Made by a program: the position numbers and the translations under genes. From the NCBI GenBank assembly GCA_036274615.1, contig DASUFK010000015.1:1-24000 (forward strand): a stretch of DNA of 24,000 nucleotides, given 5' to 3'. Positions 1 to 6,962 of this stretch are shown in pieces (position 1 is the stretch's first letter; each line of letters starts with the position of its first letter). Under the pieces are notes generated by a model. It saw only the letters and a list, made by a program, of their open reading frames with translations, did no database searches and was not told the origin of the DNA. Source of the DNA: Gammaproteobacteria bacterium (GTDB lineage Bacteria; Pseudomonadota; Gammaproteobacteria; Steroidobacterales; Rariloculaceae).

Positions 1-1096
1 AGTCACCTGTGCACCTGACGACGCGTATCCCCGCCGCTGCGTATGCTTCGGTGAACGTGTCGAACTTCTCATTCACTAACGCTTTGTACGGCAGAAGGAA
101 TGCCGCCTTCTTTCCGGCTGTGACGGCACGGATTGCCGCGAGCTCGCCGACAAACGTTTTCCCCGAACTCGTCGGCGCGACAACCAGAAGGGACTCGTCG
201 CTAAGAATGCGATGCGTGTTCACCGCTTTGATCTGTAGTTCGTTAAGACCGGACGGGAACCGTTTACGCCAATCGCTGAGAATCTCTGGCCCAAATCCGT
301 AAACGGCCAATTCGTCGATTGCGCCCGAGATGGGCTGCACGTCGAACTCGGGAAAAGCCGCGAGAAATTTCGGTCCGCGTCGCAACCTCGGAATGCTCAG
401 ACCGCCCTCGACATGGTTGATCAGTACCGGTGTTTGAACTTCTCCAATCCTCTCCGCCGCGGTTCTAGTGCGCGTCAGAACTTCATCGAAAGCACTAGAC
501 AGCGTTACCGTCTCGTCATCCCAATTGCACAACACGTCAATCAAGGCGTGCGTTAGCAGTCCGTGCCCGGTCCCCGGCTGCTCCCACGCGACCTCGTGAG
601 CGGCGGCCGCAGCTATAAGGATGCGACCCTTCCCGGTGATCAATTCGTACGGGCTCGTGGGATTTCGTGCGACGGCCGCGCCTTCAAACACGCGCGCCGG
701 GGCTGCGCCGCTGAAGCAACAATCTAGGATGCAGAGGATCGCGCGCGCTCGACAACTGCGAAATCTCTCCGCGAGTTCCTCCATACCGATGGAAGTTGCG
801 GCAAGGCCCGCGCTATTTGTGTCGTAGGCCACAAGCCGATGATTCGGCGTGCCGTGACCAGCGAACGACAGGACAACAACGTCGTCCGCTTCCGCGTCGC
901 CCAAAGACGTATCAATTGCATACCGGATCGCGGCGGCGGTTGCATCGTCGTCCAGGAGAGCGGTGGCGTCGATGTCATCAAAGGTATCGCTGAACAACGC
1001 CCACAGAGCCAGCGCATCGCGGACGGCGCCCGTCAGTTCGCGGATGCCCGGATCCTCGTGCCTATTTACGCCGACGAACGTTGCGTGGATTTTCAT
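1..1096 (-). CDS. Partial CDS (C-terminus lies beyond the left window edge): N-terminal caspase-like peptidase C14 domain fused to a Ski2/Hel308-like SF2 helicase
   Basis: Absent from the supplied ORF track because it has no stop inside the window. My reverse-complement translation starts at ATG 1096-1094, with an in-frame TAA two codons upstream. It reads MKIHATFVGVNRHEDPGIRELTGAVRDALALW...DDVVVLSFAGHGTPNHRLVAYD...RARAILCILDCCFSGAAP, giving the caspase dyad context of His in AGHG and Cys in DCCFSG. It continues ...LNELQIKAVNTHRILSDESLLVVAPTSSGKTFVGELAAIRAVTAGKKAAFLLPYKALVNEKFDTFTEAYAAAGIRVVRCTGD, covering a Q-motif-like stretch, Walker A/motif I, motif Ia and the TGD motif Ib. The frame stays open to position 2. 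Confidence 0.8.
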   Translation of the reverse strand, partial: MKIHATFVGVNRHEDPGIRELTGAVRDALALWALFSDTFDDIDATALLDDDATAAAIRYAIDTSLGDAEADDVVVLSFAGHGTPNHRLVAYDTNSAGLAATSIGMEELAERFRSCRARAILCILDCCFSGAAPARVFEGAAVARNPTSPYELITGKGRILIAAAAAHEVAWEQPGTGHGLLTHALIDVLCNWDDETVTLSSAFDEVLTRTRTAAERIGEVQTPVLINHVEGGLSIPRLRRGPKFLAAFPEFDVQPISGAIDELAVYGFGPEILSDWRKRFPSGLNELQIKAVNTHRILSDESLLVVAPTSSGKTFVGELAAIRAVTAGKKAAFLLPYKALVNEKFDTFTEAYAAAGIRVVRCTGD

Positions 1097-1207
1097 GCTT
1101 TAACTCTGTCGCCTTGACTCGCCAATCCTGCAACTACAGGGGCGCTCCCTTTCTCGCCGCGATCACTAGCTAGTATTCATGGCACCATGCCGGCCAAAGT
1201 GCGAATA

Positions 1208-1240
1208 ATACGGCATTGACGTAGTACGTCAATGCCGTAT
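1208..1240. promoter_or_regulatory. Perfect 33-bp palindrome (16-bp arms, 1-nt centre); putative operator of the toxin-antitoxin operon
   Basis: ATACGGCATTGACGTA-G-TACGTCAATGCCGTAT, checked base by base. It lies 11 bp upstream of the toxin ATG. A further TGACGTC half-site follows at 1243-1249. Type II antitoxins with HTH domains typically autoregulate through palindromes like this. Confidence 0.6.
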
Positions 1241-1243
1241 ACT
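1216..1243 (+). promoter_or_regulatory. Putative sigma70-type promoter embedded in the palindrome (-35 TTGACG, -10 TATACT, 16-nt spacer)
   Basis: TTGACG at 1216-1221 and TATACT at 1238-1243. The predicted start site falls at about 1250, essentially at the toxin ATG (1251), and no Shine-Dalgarno sequence precedes that ATG. Confidence 0.4.
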
Positions 1244-2046: not shown

Positions 2047-4650
2047 TCATTCGCTCACCAGCGCCGGCCAGTTGAGCACGACTCCGATCGCCGCTCGATC
2101 CGTTCCGCCCTGATCCTGTCGAACGGCCATCATGAAACGTTGGCCGTCGGCGGAGTCCGCACTGCTGCTACTGGCAGTGGGAGGCAGCACGAGCCGCTGA
2201 GGAACGCCGCTCTCGAAAGCCGTGCCGCTCGCATCGACGGGCACGGCGAAAAGCGTCGGGGCTGACGGAAAATGGTTGAACAGGATCTCTTCGTCGTCGC
2301 GCCACAGAGGCCAATTGCCCCCGTTCCTCGAAACCTGCCACCTGCCGTCTCCCAACGCGGGCTCGCCGTCGGCCTCCGCAAGGCGAAAAGGACGAACGTA
2401 GACTTCCGAGACGCCCGTCTCCAACGACACGTAGGCCAGCCAACGCATGTCGGGTGAGAAGACGCCCGCCCACTCGTTGAAGCTCTCGCCGAGCAGCAGA
2501 GTCCGTTTGCCGTCCTGCACGCCCAAGGCCCATTGGTCGTACCCCGTCTTCGGAGCGTTCTCCACGTGATAGAGCAGGAACCGCCCGTCGCGCGACCAAC
2601 TGGTCACGAAGTGCCTAACGCCTGACTCCTTCAAGAGCTCCTGCGCGTCGCCGAGGCCGGAGGCGGCTTTCGTAAATACCGTGTCGCCGAGACGCCCGGC
2701 CGCATACGCGATGCGGCTGCCGTCCGGAGACCACACACCCGGCGAGTAGACGTCACTCCCAAACGTTAGACGAGCGCGCCGGCCGCTCGCGAAGTCGAGC
2801 GTCCAGAGATCCCCAGGCTCACCGTACGGGGAGTCCTTCACGACGGCGCGCTTGCCGTCGGGCGACAACGCAACGCTCGTGTCGGGACCCGGCGGTCCGA
2901 ACGTGCCGAGCGTCTGCCCTTGCCGGTCGAGCCAAGTGAGCTGAAAGGTGCCGCTCGGGGCCGCGGCGCGATAAGCAAGGGTCCCGCCCTCGGAGACCGC
3001 AAACACCGCGGTGGAGTACCAGGTGACCGCCACGTTCTCGGCCACCGGCACCGGCGCGCCCGCGAGCTCGAGGCTGCGATCGTCAAACCGCTGCGCCATC
3101 AGCGTGTTCGCGCGCACGAAGAAGACGTGCCCATTCGCGTAAACCGCCGGCACGGTGCTCTGCAAGAGCCGTTGACGCGATTGTTGACCGGGCTCGATGC
3201 CGAGGGAGCCGACGTAGGTGCCTTGGACTTCCTCCGGTCCGGAGCGGAAGTACAGGAAGTGCGTGCCGTCGGCGAGGAACGTGGGCCACGTGTGATGGAA
3301 CTCCGTGGCGGAGAGGTCGACCTCCGTCACCGCCGTCGCGGCGCCGCCGGTCTCCGGCACTTTCCAGATCGGCCCGCCGGTGCCGCCGCCCCACGCGCCC
3401 ACCAAGAGGTCGCCGTTTCGGTTCCAGCTGCCGAATCCGCCCGCGTCGTTGGGCAGAGTGCTCAGCGTTTCCGGCGGTCCGCCGGCAAGAGCCACTTTCT
3501 TGATCTCACGTCCGACGCTGAAGCCGAGGTAGCGGCCGTCGGGAGACCAGAACGGTGTCGATCCGCCCTCGGTGCCCGGCAACCGCCGCCACTCCGGGGC
3601 ACCGAAATCGCGAATCCAGAGCGCCCCGCCCACGACGAACACGAGCTGGCGGCCGTCCGGCGACATCGCCAGAGCGCCGCCGGTGACACCTTCCGGAATC
3701 GAGGCCTCGAAGCGGCTCACCGAGCCCCGCGCCGCCGGCCACGACGCCCAACCGCCGAGCCCGACCGCGATCAACGCCATTACCGCGGCCAACGCTTGCC
3801 AGGCACGAACCGAACGAGCGGGCGCCGGCGCCGGTCGTTCGGCCGCGATCCAGGTGAGCGCATGCTTGATCTCGCGCGCCGATTGCCAGCGTTTCTCGGG
3901 ATCCTTCTCGAGGCAGGTTCGCACGATGGCTGCGAGGCCGGGCGGTAGCGGCGGCTGCAGGTCGGTCAGCGGCCGGGGCTCTTCCTTGAGGATGGACGCA
4001 ACGAGGCCGGTTTGCGTGTCGCCGACGAACGGTCTTCTGCCCGCGAGCAACTCGTAGAGCACGACTCCGAACGCGAACAAGTCGCTGCGCGCGTCCGCAT
4101 CCCGCCCTTCGATTTGCTCCGGCGACATGTAGGGCAGCGTGCCCAGCACGGCACCGTCAATCGTTCGGCCGGTAACTGCGGCAGCGACCTCGGTGTTCTC
4201 CCCGGCTGCGCCCGCGGGGCGTTCGATCTTCGCGAGACCGAAGTCGAGAACCTTCACGCCGTTGTGCGCGAGCAGAATGTTTTCGGGCTTGAGATCCCGG
4301 TGGACGATGCCTCGCCGGTGGGCGGCGTCGAGCGCATCCAGAATCTGTTCGGCCAATACGAGCGCTTGGGCGCGCGGCACCGGTCCCCGCAGCCGCTCGC
4401 CCTCGACGTACTCCATCACCAGGTAATCCGGGCCGACGTCGTAGAGCGAGCACACGTGCGGATGATTCAACGCCGCGATGGCTCGAGCCTCGCGCTCGAA
4501 GCGGTCACTGAAGCGGGTGTCGCTGGTCTTGATCGCGACCAAGCGGTCGAGGCGCGTGTCTCGCGCCCTCCACACTTGGCCCATGCCGCCGGCGCCAACC
4601 AAAGCCAGAATTTCGTAGGGTCCGAGCTTCGTTCCGGCCTGGAGGATCAT
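2047..4650 (-). CDS. Ser/Thr protein kinase with one TM segment and C-terminal PD40/TolB-like beta-propeller repeats
   Basis: Track ORF 2047..4716. Kinase motifs are GAGGMGQVWRA, VAIK, HRDLKPENIL, DFGLA and YMSPEQ. A hydrophobic segment AVMALIAVGLGGW follows. Repeated motifs include SPDGRQLVF, WSPDGRYLGF, SPDGKRAVV, WSPDGSRIAYA and SRDGRFLLY. I prefer the start at ATG 4650 (MILQAGTKLGPYEI), because kinase domains begin close to the G-loop. 4716 is the alternative start. Confidence 0.85.
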   Translation of the reverse strand: MILQAGTKLGPYEILALVGAGGMGQVWRARDTRLDRLVAIKTSDTRFSDRFEREARAIAALNHPHVCSLYDVGPDYLVMEYVEGERLRGPVPRAQALVLAEQILDALDAAHRRGIVHRDLKPENILLAHNGVKVLDFGLAKIERPAGAAGENTEVAAAVTGRTIDGAVLGTLPYMSPEQIEGRDADARSDLFAFGVVLYELLAGRRPFVGDTQTGLVASILKEEPRPLTDLQPPLPPGLAAIVRTCLEKDPEKRWQSAREIKHALTWIAAERPAPAPARSVRAWQALAAVMALIAVGLGGWASWPAARGSVSRFEASIPEGVTGGALAMSPDGRQLVFVVGGALWIRDFGAPEWRRLPGTEGGSTPFWSPDGRYLGFSVGREIKKVALAGGPPETLSTLPNDAGGFGSWNRNGDLLVGAWGGGTGGPIWKVPETGGAATAVTEVDLSATEFHHTWPTFLADGTHFLYFRSGPEEVQGTYVGSLGIEPGQQSRQRLLQSTVPAVYANGHVFFVRANTLMAQRFDDRSLELAGAPVPVAENVAVTWYSTAVFAVSEGGTLAYRAAAPSGTFQLTWLDRQGQTLGTFGPPGPDTSVALSPDGKRAVVKDSPYGEPGDLWTLDFASGRRARLTFGSDVYSPGVWSPDGSRIAYAAGRLGDTVFTKAASGLGDAQELLKESGVRHFVTSWSRDGRFLLYHVENAPKTGYDQWALGVQDGKRTLLLGESFNEWAGVFSPDMRWLAYVSLETGVSEVYVRPFRLAEADGEPALGDGRWQVSRNGGNWPLWRDDEEILFNHFPSAPTLFAVPVDASGTAFESGVPQRLVLPPTASSSSADSADGQRFMMAVRQDQGGTDRAAIGVVLNWPALVSE

Positions 4651-4796
4651 AGGAGTGGCGCAATGATAGCCGGTGAACCGTCGTCGAGGTGATGCCATTC
4701 GCGGTCCATTCCGCACACGGGTCCCAACCCATCGCGACCTCTGGCAGGATCGCGCTTATAGTCCTTGCGCGAAGCGTCGTCTTCAGAGACAACACC

Positions 4797-5840
4797 ATGC
4801 ACCGGAGCCGCGTCGCCGCCGTTGGCAGTTTGATCGTCACCGCCCTTGCGCTCGTTGCCCAACCACAGGAATCGAACGCGCAGCCGGCGGGCGCTGAAGC
4901 GCCTCCCTACCGCGCTCCGCGAACGTCCTGGGGCGACCCCGATCTCGCTGGTAAATGGCCGAGCACGAACATGGCCGGTGTGCCGCTCCAGCGCCCCGAA
5001 TCGTTCGGCACCCGCAACGTGCTCAACGACGCCGAGTTCGCCGAGCGTCAGGCGCAAGCCGCCCGTCAGGTGGCGGAGGACAACGCCGACTTCGATTTCG
5101 AGCACCCGAGTGTGCCGTTCGGTCAAATCGGCGGCGGGCAGTCGCCGCCGCAGCACTGGTTCGAGCGCGGCGAGACGCAGCGCCAGGCGTCGTTGATCGT
5201 CGACCCGCCGGACGGCCGCTTACCCGCGCTCACCGCCGCCGCGCAGAAGCGCGAGGCGGACCGGCGCAGCAACACGCGCACGCCTCCGGCGTCGTACACC
5301 GATTTCTCGCTCTACGAGCGGTGTATCACGCGGGGCCTCATCGGCTCCGTGATGCCGGGGGGCTACAACAACGGCAATCAGATCTTCCAGGCGCCGGGCT
5401 ACGTGACCATCGTGAACGAGATGATCCACGAGTCCCGCGTCGTGCCGCTCGACGGCCGGCCGTACGCGAGCCCGGCGATTCGAAGCTTCCTCGGCGACTC
5501 GCGCGGCCGGTGGGAGGGCGACACGCTGGTGGTGGAGACGAAGAACGTCGCCGATCGCCCGGGTCTCGGCATGAACGACACCGGCGCGAGCCCGGCGCTC
5601 ACGATCACCGAGCGCTTCACGCGAACCGGCGACGCCACGTTGCGCTACCGGGTCACCGTTGACGACCCGATGACCTGGACAGCACCCTTTACGCTGCAGT
5701 TCACTCTCGACCGGGACGACGACTACGGTATGTTCGAGTACGCGTGCCACGAGGGTAACCACGCGCTGCGCAACATCCTGAGCGGCGCCCGTGCGAGCGA
5801 GCGCGCCAACGGGGACGCGGCCCCGCGGCCGCTGCGCTGA
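4797..5840 (+). CDS. Secreted protein of unknown function, large-domain family member P1 (WEGDTLVVET / ITERF / EYACHEGN motifs)
   Basis: Track ORF 4689..5840. Internal ATG 4797 gives the signal-like N-terminus MHRSRVAAVGSLIVTALALVAQPQESNAQ. It is homologous by eye to the products of 5913..6962, 17146..18003 and the C-terminal two-thirds of 21841..23022. Confidence 0.75.
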   Translation: MHRSRVAAVGSLIVTALALVAQPQESNAQPAGAEAPPYRAPRTSWGDPDLAGKWPSTNMAGVPLQRPESFGTRNVLNDAEFAERQAQAARQVAEDNADFDFEHPSVPFGQIGGGQSPPQHWFERGETQRQASLIVDPPDGRLPALTAAAQKREADRRSNTRTPPASYTDFSLYERCITRGLIGSVMPGGYNNGNQIFQAPGYVTIVNEMIHESRVVPLDGRPYASPAIRSFLGDSRGRWEGDTLVVETKNVADRPGLGMNDTGASPALTITERFTRTGDATLRYRVTVDDPMTWTAPFTLQFTLDRDDDYGMFEYACHEGNHALRNILSGARASERANGDAAPRPLR

Positions 5841-5912: not shown

Positions 5913-6962
5913 GTGCCCACAACGAAAACAACCCCGGCCGACGGGGGTCGACTGGCTATGTATCTGCCCGGTGCTGCAGCGATGCGTGCGCTGGCCTGCC
6001 TCGTCGCGCTCGCCTGGAGCGTCGGCGCTTCGGCGCAATGGGAGCCCAGGCCCGATCCCAAGCTGCCGCGGGACAAGGACGGCAAGGTGCTCATGGACGC
6101 TCCCACGCCCAAAACGGCGGCCGGCAAACCGGATTTCTCCGGCCTCTGGATGCGGGTGAACAGCGGACCGCCGCCGGGCAACGGCGGACGTGGCGGCCGC
6201 GGGGGCGGCGGGGGCGGCGGTAACGGAGGCGGCGGCGGCGCTGGCGGCGGACCCGGCGGCGGCGGTGGTGCCAGAGGCGGAGCCGGTGGCGGTGGCGGCG
6301 GCGTCTCGCTCGAGCCCGCGCAGGCACCGTTCCCCTACGATCCGAAGGGCCCGCCGGTCGCGGCGTTCTTCGAGGCCGGTCAGAACATCGAAGGCGGTCT
6401 CCCCTACACGCCGTGGGCCAAGGAGCTCAGGGACAAGCGCTTCGCCGCGCGCGCGAAGGACAACCCGGATGCCAATTGCATGCCGATGGGGTTTCTACAA
6501 TTTCACCAGCAGCCCCAACCGCGCATGATCATCCAAACCGACAAGATGATCCTGATCGAGTACGAAGCCAACTACGGCATCCGCCACATCTACTTGGACG
6601 GACGCAAGCTGCCGCCGCAGGGCGAGCCGCAGCCGTGGTGGTACGGCTATTCGGTGGGTCACTGGGAAGGCGACGACCTGGTAGTCGAGACGAACAACCT
6701 GCGCGGTGCCGACGAGGACAGCCCCTACGACGCCTGGCTCGACGTGAACGGCAGCCCGTACTCGCGCGAGGCGAAGATCACGGAGCGCTTCCGCCGGCCC
6801 GAGCTCGGCCATTTGCAGATCGACTTCACGATCGAAGATCCGAAGGCGTACACCAAACCGTGGACCGTGCGTGTCGATCAGCGCCTCCTGCCGGACCAGG
6901 AGCTGATCGAGTTCGTCTGCAACGAAAATCAACAATTCGGCAATAGAATCAAGCTGGATTAG
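5913..6962 (+). CDS. Secreted protein of unknown function, large-domain family member P2, with a Gly-rich low-complexity insert
   Basis: GTG start at 5913 with AGGAGG at 5901-5906. Signal-like segment: AMRALACLVALAWSVGASAQ. Family motifs present: PDFSGLW, NCMPMGF, DGRKLPP, GHWEGDDLVVETNNL, ITERFRR, EDPKAYTKPWTV and EFVCNEN. Confidence 0.8.
   Translation: MPTTKTTPADGGRLAMYLPGAAAMRALACLVALAWSVGASAQWEPRPDPKLPRDKDGKVLMDAPTPKTAAGKPDFSGLWMRVNSGPPPGNGGRGGRGGGGGGGNGGGGGAGGGPGGGGGARGGAGGGGGGVSLEPAQAPFPYDPKGPPVAAFFEAGQNIEGGLPYTPWAKELRDKRFAARAKDNPDANCMPMGFLQFHQQPQPRMIIQTDKMILIEYEANYGIRHIYLDGRKLPPQGEPQPWWYGYSVGHWEGDDLVVETNNLRGADEDSPYDAWLDVNGSPYSREAKITERFRRPELGHLQIDFTIEDPKAYTKPWTVRVDQRLLPDQELIEFVCNENQQFGNRIKLD
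6165..6302 (+). repeat. GGN-codon low-complexity tract encoding ~46 aa of Gly-rich (RGG-like) sequence inside P2
   Basis: It encodes GPPPGNGGRGGRGGGGGGGNGGGGGAGGGPGGGGGARGGAGGGGGG. The three paralogs have no counterpart at this position. Confidence 0.9.

Follow-up and report, generated by a model that had tools for sequence, protein, structure and literature searches.

A widespread fusion of a caspase-type protease and a Hel308-type helicase with a probable role in bacterial defence

The stretch of DNA analysed here (the window: positions 1 to 24,000 of contig DASUFK010000015.1, assembly GCA_036274615.1, from a gammaproteobacterium of the Rariloculaceae) begins inside a gene, and the question that this locus raises is what its product, a protease joined to a nucleic-acid motor, does for its host. 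We found that the left edge of the window holds the N-terminal third of a fusion between a caspase-type protease and a complete Hel308-type helicase. The product is probably a defence protein that acts alone as a single polypeptide and is encoded on a tRNA-integrated genomic island, a role that we favour because the family stands alone in mobile islands beside known anti-phage systems.

The fusion gene and its two catalytic modules

Reading the minus strand from an ATG at 1096-1094, we found 365 codons without a stop (window positions 1-1096), in a frame that exits at the left edge (Table 1). Because the frame leaves the window there, the gene is missing from the list of open reading frames (ORFs) of the window, as the original prediction, made from the sequence alone, had correctly stated. 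That prediction had also described a C14 peptidase with both contexts of the catalytic dyad, followed by superfamily 2 (SF2) helicase motifs Q, I, Ia and Ib, and the motifs lie where it had placed them: AGHG at residues 79-82, DCCFSG at 125-130, APTSSGKT (motif I) at 307-314 and TGD (motif Ib) at 363-365. Furthermore, Pfam Peptidase_C14 (PF00656) matches residues 5-211 of the fragment well above its cut-off (E value 1.5e-13; 51.4 bits against 21.4), and Pfam DEAD matches residues 288-364 (E value 4.1e-11). The NCBIfam model caspase_w_EACC1 (“caspase, EACC1-associated type”) matches the fragment with an E value of 7.6e-28, NCBIfam Hel308-type models match its C-terminal stretch, and the generic caspase model of PADLOC matches it at 2e-19.

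The gene extends about 1.9 kb past the left edge. We recovered it in full by exact look-up of the toxin and antitoxin proteins of the window, which led to contigs L089 and L090 (from the Logan assemblies of SRR16630573 and SRR16630574; they show 7 and 3 mismatches where they overlap the window) that reach 2.6-2.8 kb farther left. The complete gene (L089 834-3866, minus strand) encodes 1,011 amino acids with Peptidase_C14, DEAD and Helicase_C domains, laid out as a caspase at residues 1-230, a 55-residue linker at 231-285 and a five-domain Hel308 helicase. The architecture is therefore the one originally described, now extended to the full protein with an entire Hel308 helicase.

The N-terminal module is a clan-CD C14 protease with an intact His81/Cys127 dyad. 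A profile of 46 family members, compared with the PDB, finds metacaspases, and their catalytic His (in YSGHG) lines up with the His of FAGHG. The 365-residue fragment was modelled with AlphaFold2 at a predicted local distance difference test (pLDDT) score of 81.6, about 90 across the protease, and the best PDB matches of the model found by Foldseek are MALT1 paracaspase, the bacterial GSU0716, caspase-9 and metacaspases (E values 1e-9 to 1e-12). We counted conservation in 46 close and 39 more distant homologs (85 aligned). His81 (codon at 854-856), Gly82 and Asp125 (722-724) are invariant in both sets, and Cys127 (716-718) is kept in 45 of the 46 close and in all 39 distant homologs. Since Cys126 is replaceable (P0041 carries DACFAG) and Cys127 is conserved, we assign the nucleophile to Cys127. 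The Asp-x-Cys arrangement occurs in metacaspases (DSC) and in MALT1 (DMC), both of which cut after Arg or Lys. By analogy, the Asp two residues ahead of the catalytic Cys suggests that the fusion protein likewise cleaves after Arg or Lys.

A loop past the catalytic Cys is predicted to be disordered and carries conserved basic residues: Arg or Lys stands at position 135 in 46/46 close and 35/39 distant homologs, and at position 144 in 45/46 and 27/39. The loop sits where the inter-subunit linker of caspases lies and is a plausible candidate for an autoprocessing or activation site. The nearest non-fusion relatives of the caspase domain have 2-4 tandem caspase copies per protein (P0195, P0215, P0216, P0227, P0232, P0242, P0253 and P0254), which, as far as sequence can tell, hints that this caspase clade may work as dimers.

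The linker is conserved at P236, G241, F248, P249 and W276 in the alignments, and Hel308 structures begin aligning near profile position 264. In the start of the RecA1 domain, whose best sequence matches in the PDB are Ski2/Hel308 helicases, the Q motif contributes Q288 and the Walker A motif APTSSGKT occupies nucleotides 155-178, with the Lys313 codon at 158-160. Q288, G312 and K313 are invariant; T314 is invariant in two alignments (A1 and A3) and conserved in at least 90% of a third (A6). The full gene adds helicase motifs II, III, V and VI, which completes the RecA1 and RecA2 motif set (in L089: LDEGQ at 407-411 for II, LSAV at 444-447 for III, ATTTLAAGINTPA at 614-626 and GRAGRLG at 654-660). 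The key motif residues K312, D408/E409 and R655/R658 (P0121 numbering) are invariant in the 39 divergent homologs.

Beyond the motor core, full-length homologs match the NCBIfam Hel308-type model PRK02362 across model positions 4-698 of 739. The family profile aligns end to end with the archaeal Hjm/Hel308 structures 2zj2 (E value 9.7e-96) and 2va8 (3.7e-92, profile positions 264-1001 to chain residues 11-707), and more weakly with the Polθ helicase domain (1e-65) and with HamB (8vx9, 5.8e-29). A model of a 1,008-residue homolog (pLDDT 88.5, predicted TM-score 0.82) gave target-normalised TM-scores of 0.80-0.86 over about 750 aligned columns against Hel308/Hjm chains, versus 0.48 against HamB. 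The winged-helix, ratchet (domain 4) and helix-hairpin-helix (domain 5) domains are covered by both the profile and the fold alignment to Hel308/Hjm, and Pfam Helicase_dom4_arc scores 24-26 bits, slightly under its cut-off of 27. By sequence comparison and predicted fold, the helicase part is much closer to archaeal Hel308/Hjm than to HamB and appears as a five-domain Hel308 with all ATPase and helicase motifs present.

A first protein search returned only entries of 640 residues or fewer, suggestive of a short protein that lacks RecA2. This proved to be an artefact: intact genes encode about 1,000 residues, and the short entries are fragments at contig ends, frameshifted long-read assemblies and one copy interrupted by an IS21 element. 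Copies split by frameshift occur in metagenome-assembled genomes from ENA (L006 10001-13005, L092 9511-12520, L093 10001-13001 and L001 10001-11827), where we suspect long-read indel errors over true pseudogenes. The Methylocapsa aurea copy stops just short of a fragment of the IS21 helper-ATPase (IstB) gene at the end of its contig.

Spread of the family and its genomic neighbours

A scan of one genome per species gave 540 relatives. The best 80 of these span residues 1-365 at 39-64% identity and come from Burkholderiales, Rhizobiales, Pseudomonas, Acidobacteriota, Bacteroidota, Cyanobacteriota, Verrucomicrobiota, Planctomycetota, Gemmatimonadota, Mycolicibacterium (Actinomycetota), Bacillota, bacteria of the candidate phyla radiation and Methanotrichaceae archaea; intact open frames in the homolog loci again encode about 1,000 residues. 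Against 1.84 billion representative proteins, the caspase and linker gave 86 matches at E ≤ 1e-30, and 40 among the top 150 matches (representatives of clusters at 50% identity) are full-length fusions. The helicase part gave 2,688 clusters at E ≤ 1e-30. The 120 matches listed for this query all show 56-100% identity in the helicase part (only the query’s own protein reaches 100%), most are about 1,000 residues long and about 70% have Peptidase_C14 on record. No other N-terminal effector was found on the same helicase clade among these top 120 matches, and for this reason we do not argue for a swappable effector.

Full-length copies are present on 17 PLSDB plasmids. Homologs from isolates include those of Pandoraea sp. 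XJJ-1 (P0328) and Pseudomonas sichuanensis (P0285) and WP_060913256 of a Bradyrhizobium plasmid. A phage-borne gene was considered and ruled out, as no full-length match was found in 50,697 phage records and just 1 of 2.9 million viral contigs carries the fusion gene. The family is thus large, widespread and horizontally scattered, with both catalytic centres conserved. In the databases its members go by no other names than “DEAD/DEAH box helicase” and “replicative superfamily II helicase”. Among the papers searched, none characterises this fusion or links a caspase to Hel308 or to a fused helicase in connection with defence. Helicase fusions do appear in two surveys of caspase homologs from prokaryotes, where they are listed as a rare architecture, with 12 of 671 sequences in the first survey and 3 cyanobacterial orthocaspases in the second. 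The original prediction had likewise known of no characterised system in which one polypeptide has exactly this architecture.

ORFs were called and clustered across 80 homolog loci, and only the cluster of the fusion protein is common to most of these loci. A conserved partner gene was rejected: the largest neighbour cluster occurs in 10 of the 80 loci, and clusters c2-c6 correspond to an AbiE-like pair and to separate QatABC genes. A close co-directional gene lies upstream in 23 loci and downstream in 31, and these genes are largely unrelated apart from one recurrent island. Because no neighbour is conserved across the family, the fusion protein appears to act alone. The 148 proteins within three genes on either side that match Pfam fall into 108 families, led by resolvases, helix-turn-helix (HTH) regulators, KAP NTPases, integrases and Mrr nucleases, with Abi_2, HipA, a STAND NTPase and another caspase also present.

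Known defence and mobility genes recur around the fusion gene in varied combinations. A cyclic-oligonucleotide-based anti-phage signalling system (CBASS; SMODS/ThiF/JAB/SAVED) lies near it in L006; a SIR2 protein with an SMC-like ATPase, three toxin–antitoxin (TA) pairs and an integrase in L001; an MmeI-type restriction–modification enzyme in L092; integrases and a RelA/SpoT protein in L093; and a KAP NTPase, a second caspase and an integrase in L091. The copy on a Bradyrhizobium conjugative plasmid (L094) is accompanied by multiubiquitin/ThiF/DUF6527 genes and AbiE, and that on Acaryochloris plasmid pREB8 (L095) by NB-ARC and TIR proteins. The closest homolog (L097) sits on a mobilisable element adjoining BREX-2/Pgl genes. 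On a Pandoraea integrative and conjugative element (ICE; L098-L100), an AbiE-like pair stands on one side of the fusion gene, and QatABCD and a TIR protein on the other. Homologs in a conserved housekeeping synteny would have spoken against an accessory role; the neighbourhoods that we found are variable, mobile and rich in defence genes.

Two observations on these loci may be added. In the ICE lineage, the pair directly upstream of the fusion gene (L098 8016-9991; also L013, L017 and L024) comprises a protein of about 360 residues with a weak AbiEi-like HTH match and a 298-residue protein of unknown family, and QatABCD follows directly downstream. Extra stand-alone caspase-family genes occur a few kb from the fusion gene at L016 7827-9383 and 17880-18878, L091 8162-8890 and L096 4041-5822.

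A proposed sensor–effector mechanism, its rivals and its relatives

If the protein serves in defence, the Hel308 module would act as the sensor and, with the use of ATP, would engage damaged DNA, replication intermediates or the ends of phage or plasmid DNA. Helicases of the Hel308 type are loaded onto forks and onto 3′ tails of single-stranded DNA and move 3′→5′. Literature quoted in PMC12278908 describes their preference for 3′→5′ unwinding and their activity at damaged forks, and HamB of Hachiman uses related chemistry to sense the loss of genome integrity (PMC12278908). DNA engagement would then switch on the latent protease, either through a conformational change passed on via the linker or by crowding several molecules on DNA so that their caspases dimerise. 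Caspases generally need dimerisation and/or loop cleavage for activity. The dimerisation route is in line with the 2-4 tandem caspase copies of the nearest non-fusion relatives, and activation may include cutting of the disordered loop past Cys127 at the conserved Arg/Lys 135 and 144. The active protease would cut many host and phage proteins and so abort the infection; such a role is documented for the caspase of type IV Thoeris and for PCaspase, promiscuous effectors with Arg specificity (10.1101/2024.10.24.620036). Furthermore, the palindromic promoter region shared with a neighbouring higBA-type pair may keep expression of the fusion gene low.

We put forward more tentatively, with somewhat less than even confidence, the wider proposal that the family is a widespread, unrecognised single-protein immune system in which a Hel308-type helicase senses invading or damaged DNA and directly activates its own caspase. 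In a more radical form of it, the motor may carry the protease along DNA and destroy DNA-bound phage proteins.

The helicase itself raises the alternative that survives best, namely an accessory enzyme of DNA repair or roadblock removal rather than of immunity, in which Hel308 would track single-stranded DNA at stalled forks and the protease would degrade stuck or cross-linked proteins. The five domains align end to end, with all motifs, with archaeal Hel308/Hjm (2p6r, 2va8 and 2zj2; E values 1e-84 to 1e-96) and with the Polθ helicase domain, and both sequence and predicted fold mark this part of the protein as a bona fide Hel308. In addition, Hel308 and HELQ act at damaged forks according to work cited in PMC12278908, and the two activities are tethered in one chain with no separate substrate gene conserved. 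Hel308 itself is a repair enzyme of archaea and metazoans that has no protease domain, whereas the fusion family is mostly bacterial and mobile and has an N-terminal extension of 285 residues made up of the caspase and linker. The patchy, scattered spread of the family (plasmids, ICEs and tRNA islands, near CBASS, Qat, BREX and Abi) is, however, unlike that of a vertically inherited core repair factor, and the closest caspase relatives are of conflict-system types, such as the EACC1-associated caspase model. We consider a repair role unlikely.

To the neighbours belongs a second alternative, to which we give slightly less weight: the fusion protein would be the sensor–protease half of a two-gene system, and a variable downstream pro-effector, here an Mrr-type nuclease, would be activated by cleavage, an arrangement akin to trypsin-Hachiman–MBL, canu or EACC1 modules. 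An Mrr_cat ORF does lie 50 nt downstream on the same strand in the source locus, co-directional genes downstream in other loci encode an EEP nuclease, a Tle1-like phospholipase, an AbiJ-domain protein and KAP NTPases, and the pairing of a protease with an effector is common in defence (PMC12642450, PMC12799240). Yet a co-directional gene within 160 nt downstream is found in only 31 of about 70 intact loci, few of these genes are related between loci, and several belong to independent systems, such as the KAP NTPase, whose gene opens a QatABCD operon. In the homolog loci we detected no partner of the EACC1, MBL or Pepco kind.

Least probable is a regulatory, self-directed protease whose autoprocessing frees or activates the helicase to strip or unwind invading DNA: the disordered loop with conserved basic residues past the catalytic Cys does resemble a processing site and the helicase is more conserved than the caspase (56-79% identity, the query’s own protein excluded, against about 40-65%), but conservation is as strict for the dyad and the predicted S1 Asp as it is for the ATPase motifs, it is not obvious how a helicase that lacks a nuclease would harm an invader, and the known bacterial caspase-like defence proteins are effectors (10.1101/2024.10.24.620036).

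Several points weigh against the stand-alone defence protein that we prefer. We infer its function from guilt by association and domain logic, as we do the activation route, the substrates and the specificity at the P1 position, and its Hel308 relatives are DNA-repair enzymes, which makes a repair role possible. Some of the neighbours are ordinary metabolic or regulatory genes, and the defence context is drawn from individual annotated examples. One of the 46 close homologs has Ser in place of Cys127. The window itself holds just 365 of the 1,011 residues, the remainder being taken from near-identical contigs. Finally, PADLOC-DB v2 contains no model of the whole protein; the only matches there come from the generic caspase model and from partial HamB models.

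As a stand-alone defence protein, the fusion resembles both Hachiman and the caspase-effector systems in logic but fails the membership tests of each. Hachiman (HamA nuclease and HamB) likewise couples a Ski2/Hel308-like helicase sensor to a destructive effector that the sensor gates (PMC12278908), and both are found in defence islands; the effector of the fusion is, however, a protease in the same chain, whereas that of Hachiman is a nuclease in a separate subunit. The matches of the HamB models of PADLOC are confined to the motor core, where they form one or two stretches and score at most 122 bits. No HamA/DUF1837 was found near the fusion gene among the matches listed (the top 25 Pfam families, in immediate and ±3 neighbours). 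Membership in Hachiman was rejected on the missing HamA and on a helicase nearer to Hel308 than to HamB.

The type IV Thoeris caspase and the PCaspase of type III CRISPR share with the fusion a C14 caspase-like protease as the killing module, and its Asp-x-Cys motif suggests, by analogy, an Arg/Lys specificity like theirs. They are, however, separate proteins switched on by N7-cADPR or by an upstream protease, whereas the presumed activator of the fusion is the attached helicase. No TIR, SAVED-CHAT or CanB/CanC partner recurs in the 80 homolog loci, where TIR proteins occur only as sporadic separate neighbours.

Control of a protease by a sensor NTPase or helicase is also seen in trypsin-HamA with MBL (HamMAB), in caspase–EACC1 on Avs and in CanABC of canu, and in trypsin-Hachiman the controlling subunit is a helicase (PMC12799240; 10.1101/2025.09.03.673762). 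The EACC1-associated caspase model (NF047832) is the best NCBIfam match of our caspase domain, yet it scores 97.4 bits on the fragment and 97-102 on full-length homologs against a cut-off of 140. An EACC1-, MBL- or Pepco-type substrate adjoining the protease gene was sought among the neighbours in the homolog loci and not found. Small ORFs upstream of the gene in six homolog loci match no EACC1 family in Pfam or NCBIfam, libraries that may not include an EACC1 model: four are without any match, and the other two match the unrelated DUF6527 and DUF2158. In the window, the fusion gene has just 154 nt of intergenic space before the divergent higB.

More distant parallels exist outside bacteria. 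Flavivirus NS3 carries an N-terminal protease and a C-terminal SF2 helicase in one chain, with an unrelated serine-protease fold that serves viral polyprotein processing. RIG-I (CARD–helicase) is a nucleic-acid-sensing SF2 helicase whose signal, relayed by adaptor proteins, ends in caspase activation; unlike in that pathway, the caspase of the fusion is built into the sensor itself.

If the proposed function holds, the family would be an abundant new defence family that current defence-finding databases have missed, hidden under the name “DEAD/DEAH box helicase”. It would offer a minimal single-gene model for how a helicase turns DNA sensing into the activation of a death protease, and a model for how, before eukaryotes, proteases of the caspase type came to be coupled to sensors of nucleic acids, with the helicase-to-caspase pathway of animal innate immunity collapsed into one bacterial polypeptide. 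In addition, many bacteria would turn out to have a genuine Hel308-type helicase, whereas the Hachiman literature states that Hel308 is absent from bacteria (PMC12278908).

The island around the fusion gene

Features at the left end of the window are listed in Table 1. The original prediction had placed the gene in a region of lower GC (guanine plus cytosine) content bounded by a tRNA fragment and beside a divergent HigBA pair, and both descriptions hold. The GC content is 57.4% in positions 1-2043 and 69.0% in the remainder of the window. The step coincides with a 24-nt tRNA 3′ end, GTTCGATTCCGTCCCTGGCCACCA, which corresponds to tRNA positions 53-76 and whose pattern occurs just once in the window and in none of 100 shuffles. 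A whole tRNA gene at the island border was sought with ARAGORN and Rfam and none was found, leaving the 24-nt fragment. Its orientation puts the island to its left, and from these sequence features the fragment looks like the distal attachment (att) repeat at the right end of a tRNA-integrated low-GC island.

Table 1. Features of the fusion gene and the adjoining island in the window (table positions are nucleotides of the window)
Feature	Position	Strand	Evidence
Fusion gene, 5′ third (365 codons)	1-1096 (frame 2-1096)	minus	Translation; Pfam/NCBIfam matches
Start of RecA1 domain, residues 286-365 (motifs Q, I, Ia, Ib)	2-241	minus	Pfam DEAD
Conserved linker, residues 231-285	242-406	minus	Alignments
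Peptidase C14 (caspase/metacaspase-like) domain, residues 1-230	407-1096	minus	Pfam, NCBIfam, Foldseek
Loop past the catalytic Cys, residues 129-154	635-712	minus	pLDDT <50 in both AlphaFold2 models
Perfect 16+16-nt palindrome (1208-1240) with two sigma-70-like promoters	1205-1243		Sequence scan
RelE/HigB-type toxin gene, 103 residues	1251-1562	plus	Pfam RelE PF06296, 33.1 bits (cut-off 27)
HTH (Xre/MqsA-like) antitoxin gene, 90 residues	1555-1827	plus	Pfam HTH_3 PF01381, 42 bits (cut-off 23)
tRNA 3′ fragment (T-loop, 3′ T-stem, acceptor strand, discriminator, CCA)	2020-2043	plus	Pattern match

From right to left, the island consists of the higBA-type pair, a 154-nt intergenic region, the fusion gene, a 50-nt gap, the Mrr_cat ORF and a remnant of an IS3-type insertion sequence. 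The Mrr_cat restriction-nuclease ORF (at least 192 residues) is on the strand of the fusion gene and runs straight into an IS3-type (rve) transposase fragment (L089 1-830, L090 1-578), and the end of the island beyond the fusion gene has been rearranged. The suggestion that partner genes may lie left of the window holds in so far as an Mrr-type nuclease gene and the insertion-sequence remnant are there; neither is conserved across the family.

The two genes of the higBA-type pair, divergent from the fusion gene, encode a RelE-fold toxin and an HTH antitoxin, both with Pfam scores above the cut-offs. They overlap by 8 nt across the toxin stop codon, and the toxin gene comes first, as is typical of HigBA. 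On the antitoxin, the MqsA-family and NadS models of NCBIfam stay under their cut-offs. Between the pair and the fusion gene, the palindrome contains two face-to-face sigma-70-like promoters, one directed to higB and one to the fusion gene (2 sites, against 0.6 expected from shuffles). The palindrome may be a shared operator at which the HTH antitoxin represses both higBA and the fusion gene, and a TA module that represses Hachiman is a published precedent (PMC13064477). This putative regulatory link is not conserved in other loci, and the HigB-type toxin shows no similarity to the Gp49-type toxin beside the closest homolog.

Immediately outside the island, the first high-GC gene (2047-4716, minus strand) encodes an 889-residue Ser/Thr protein kinase fused to PD40/Tricorn-like beta-propeller repeats. 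It is followed by two adjacent paralogous ORFs, 4689-5840 (383 residues) and 5913-6962 (349 residues), which have no Pfam match and share 32% identity over their C-terminal 155 residues; the second of them contains a Gly-rich run of about 45 residues.

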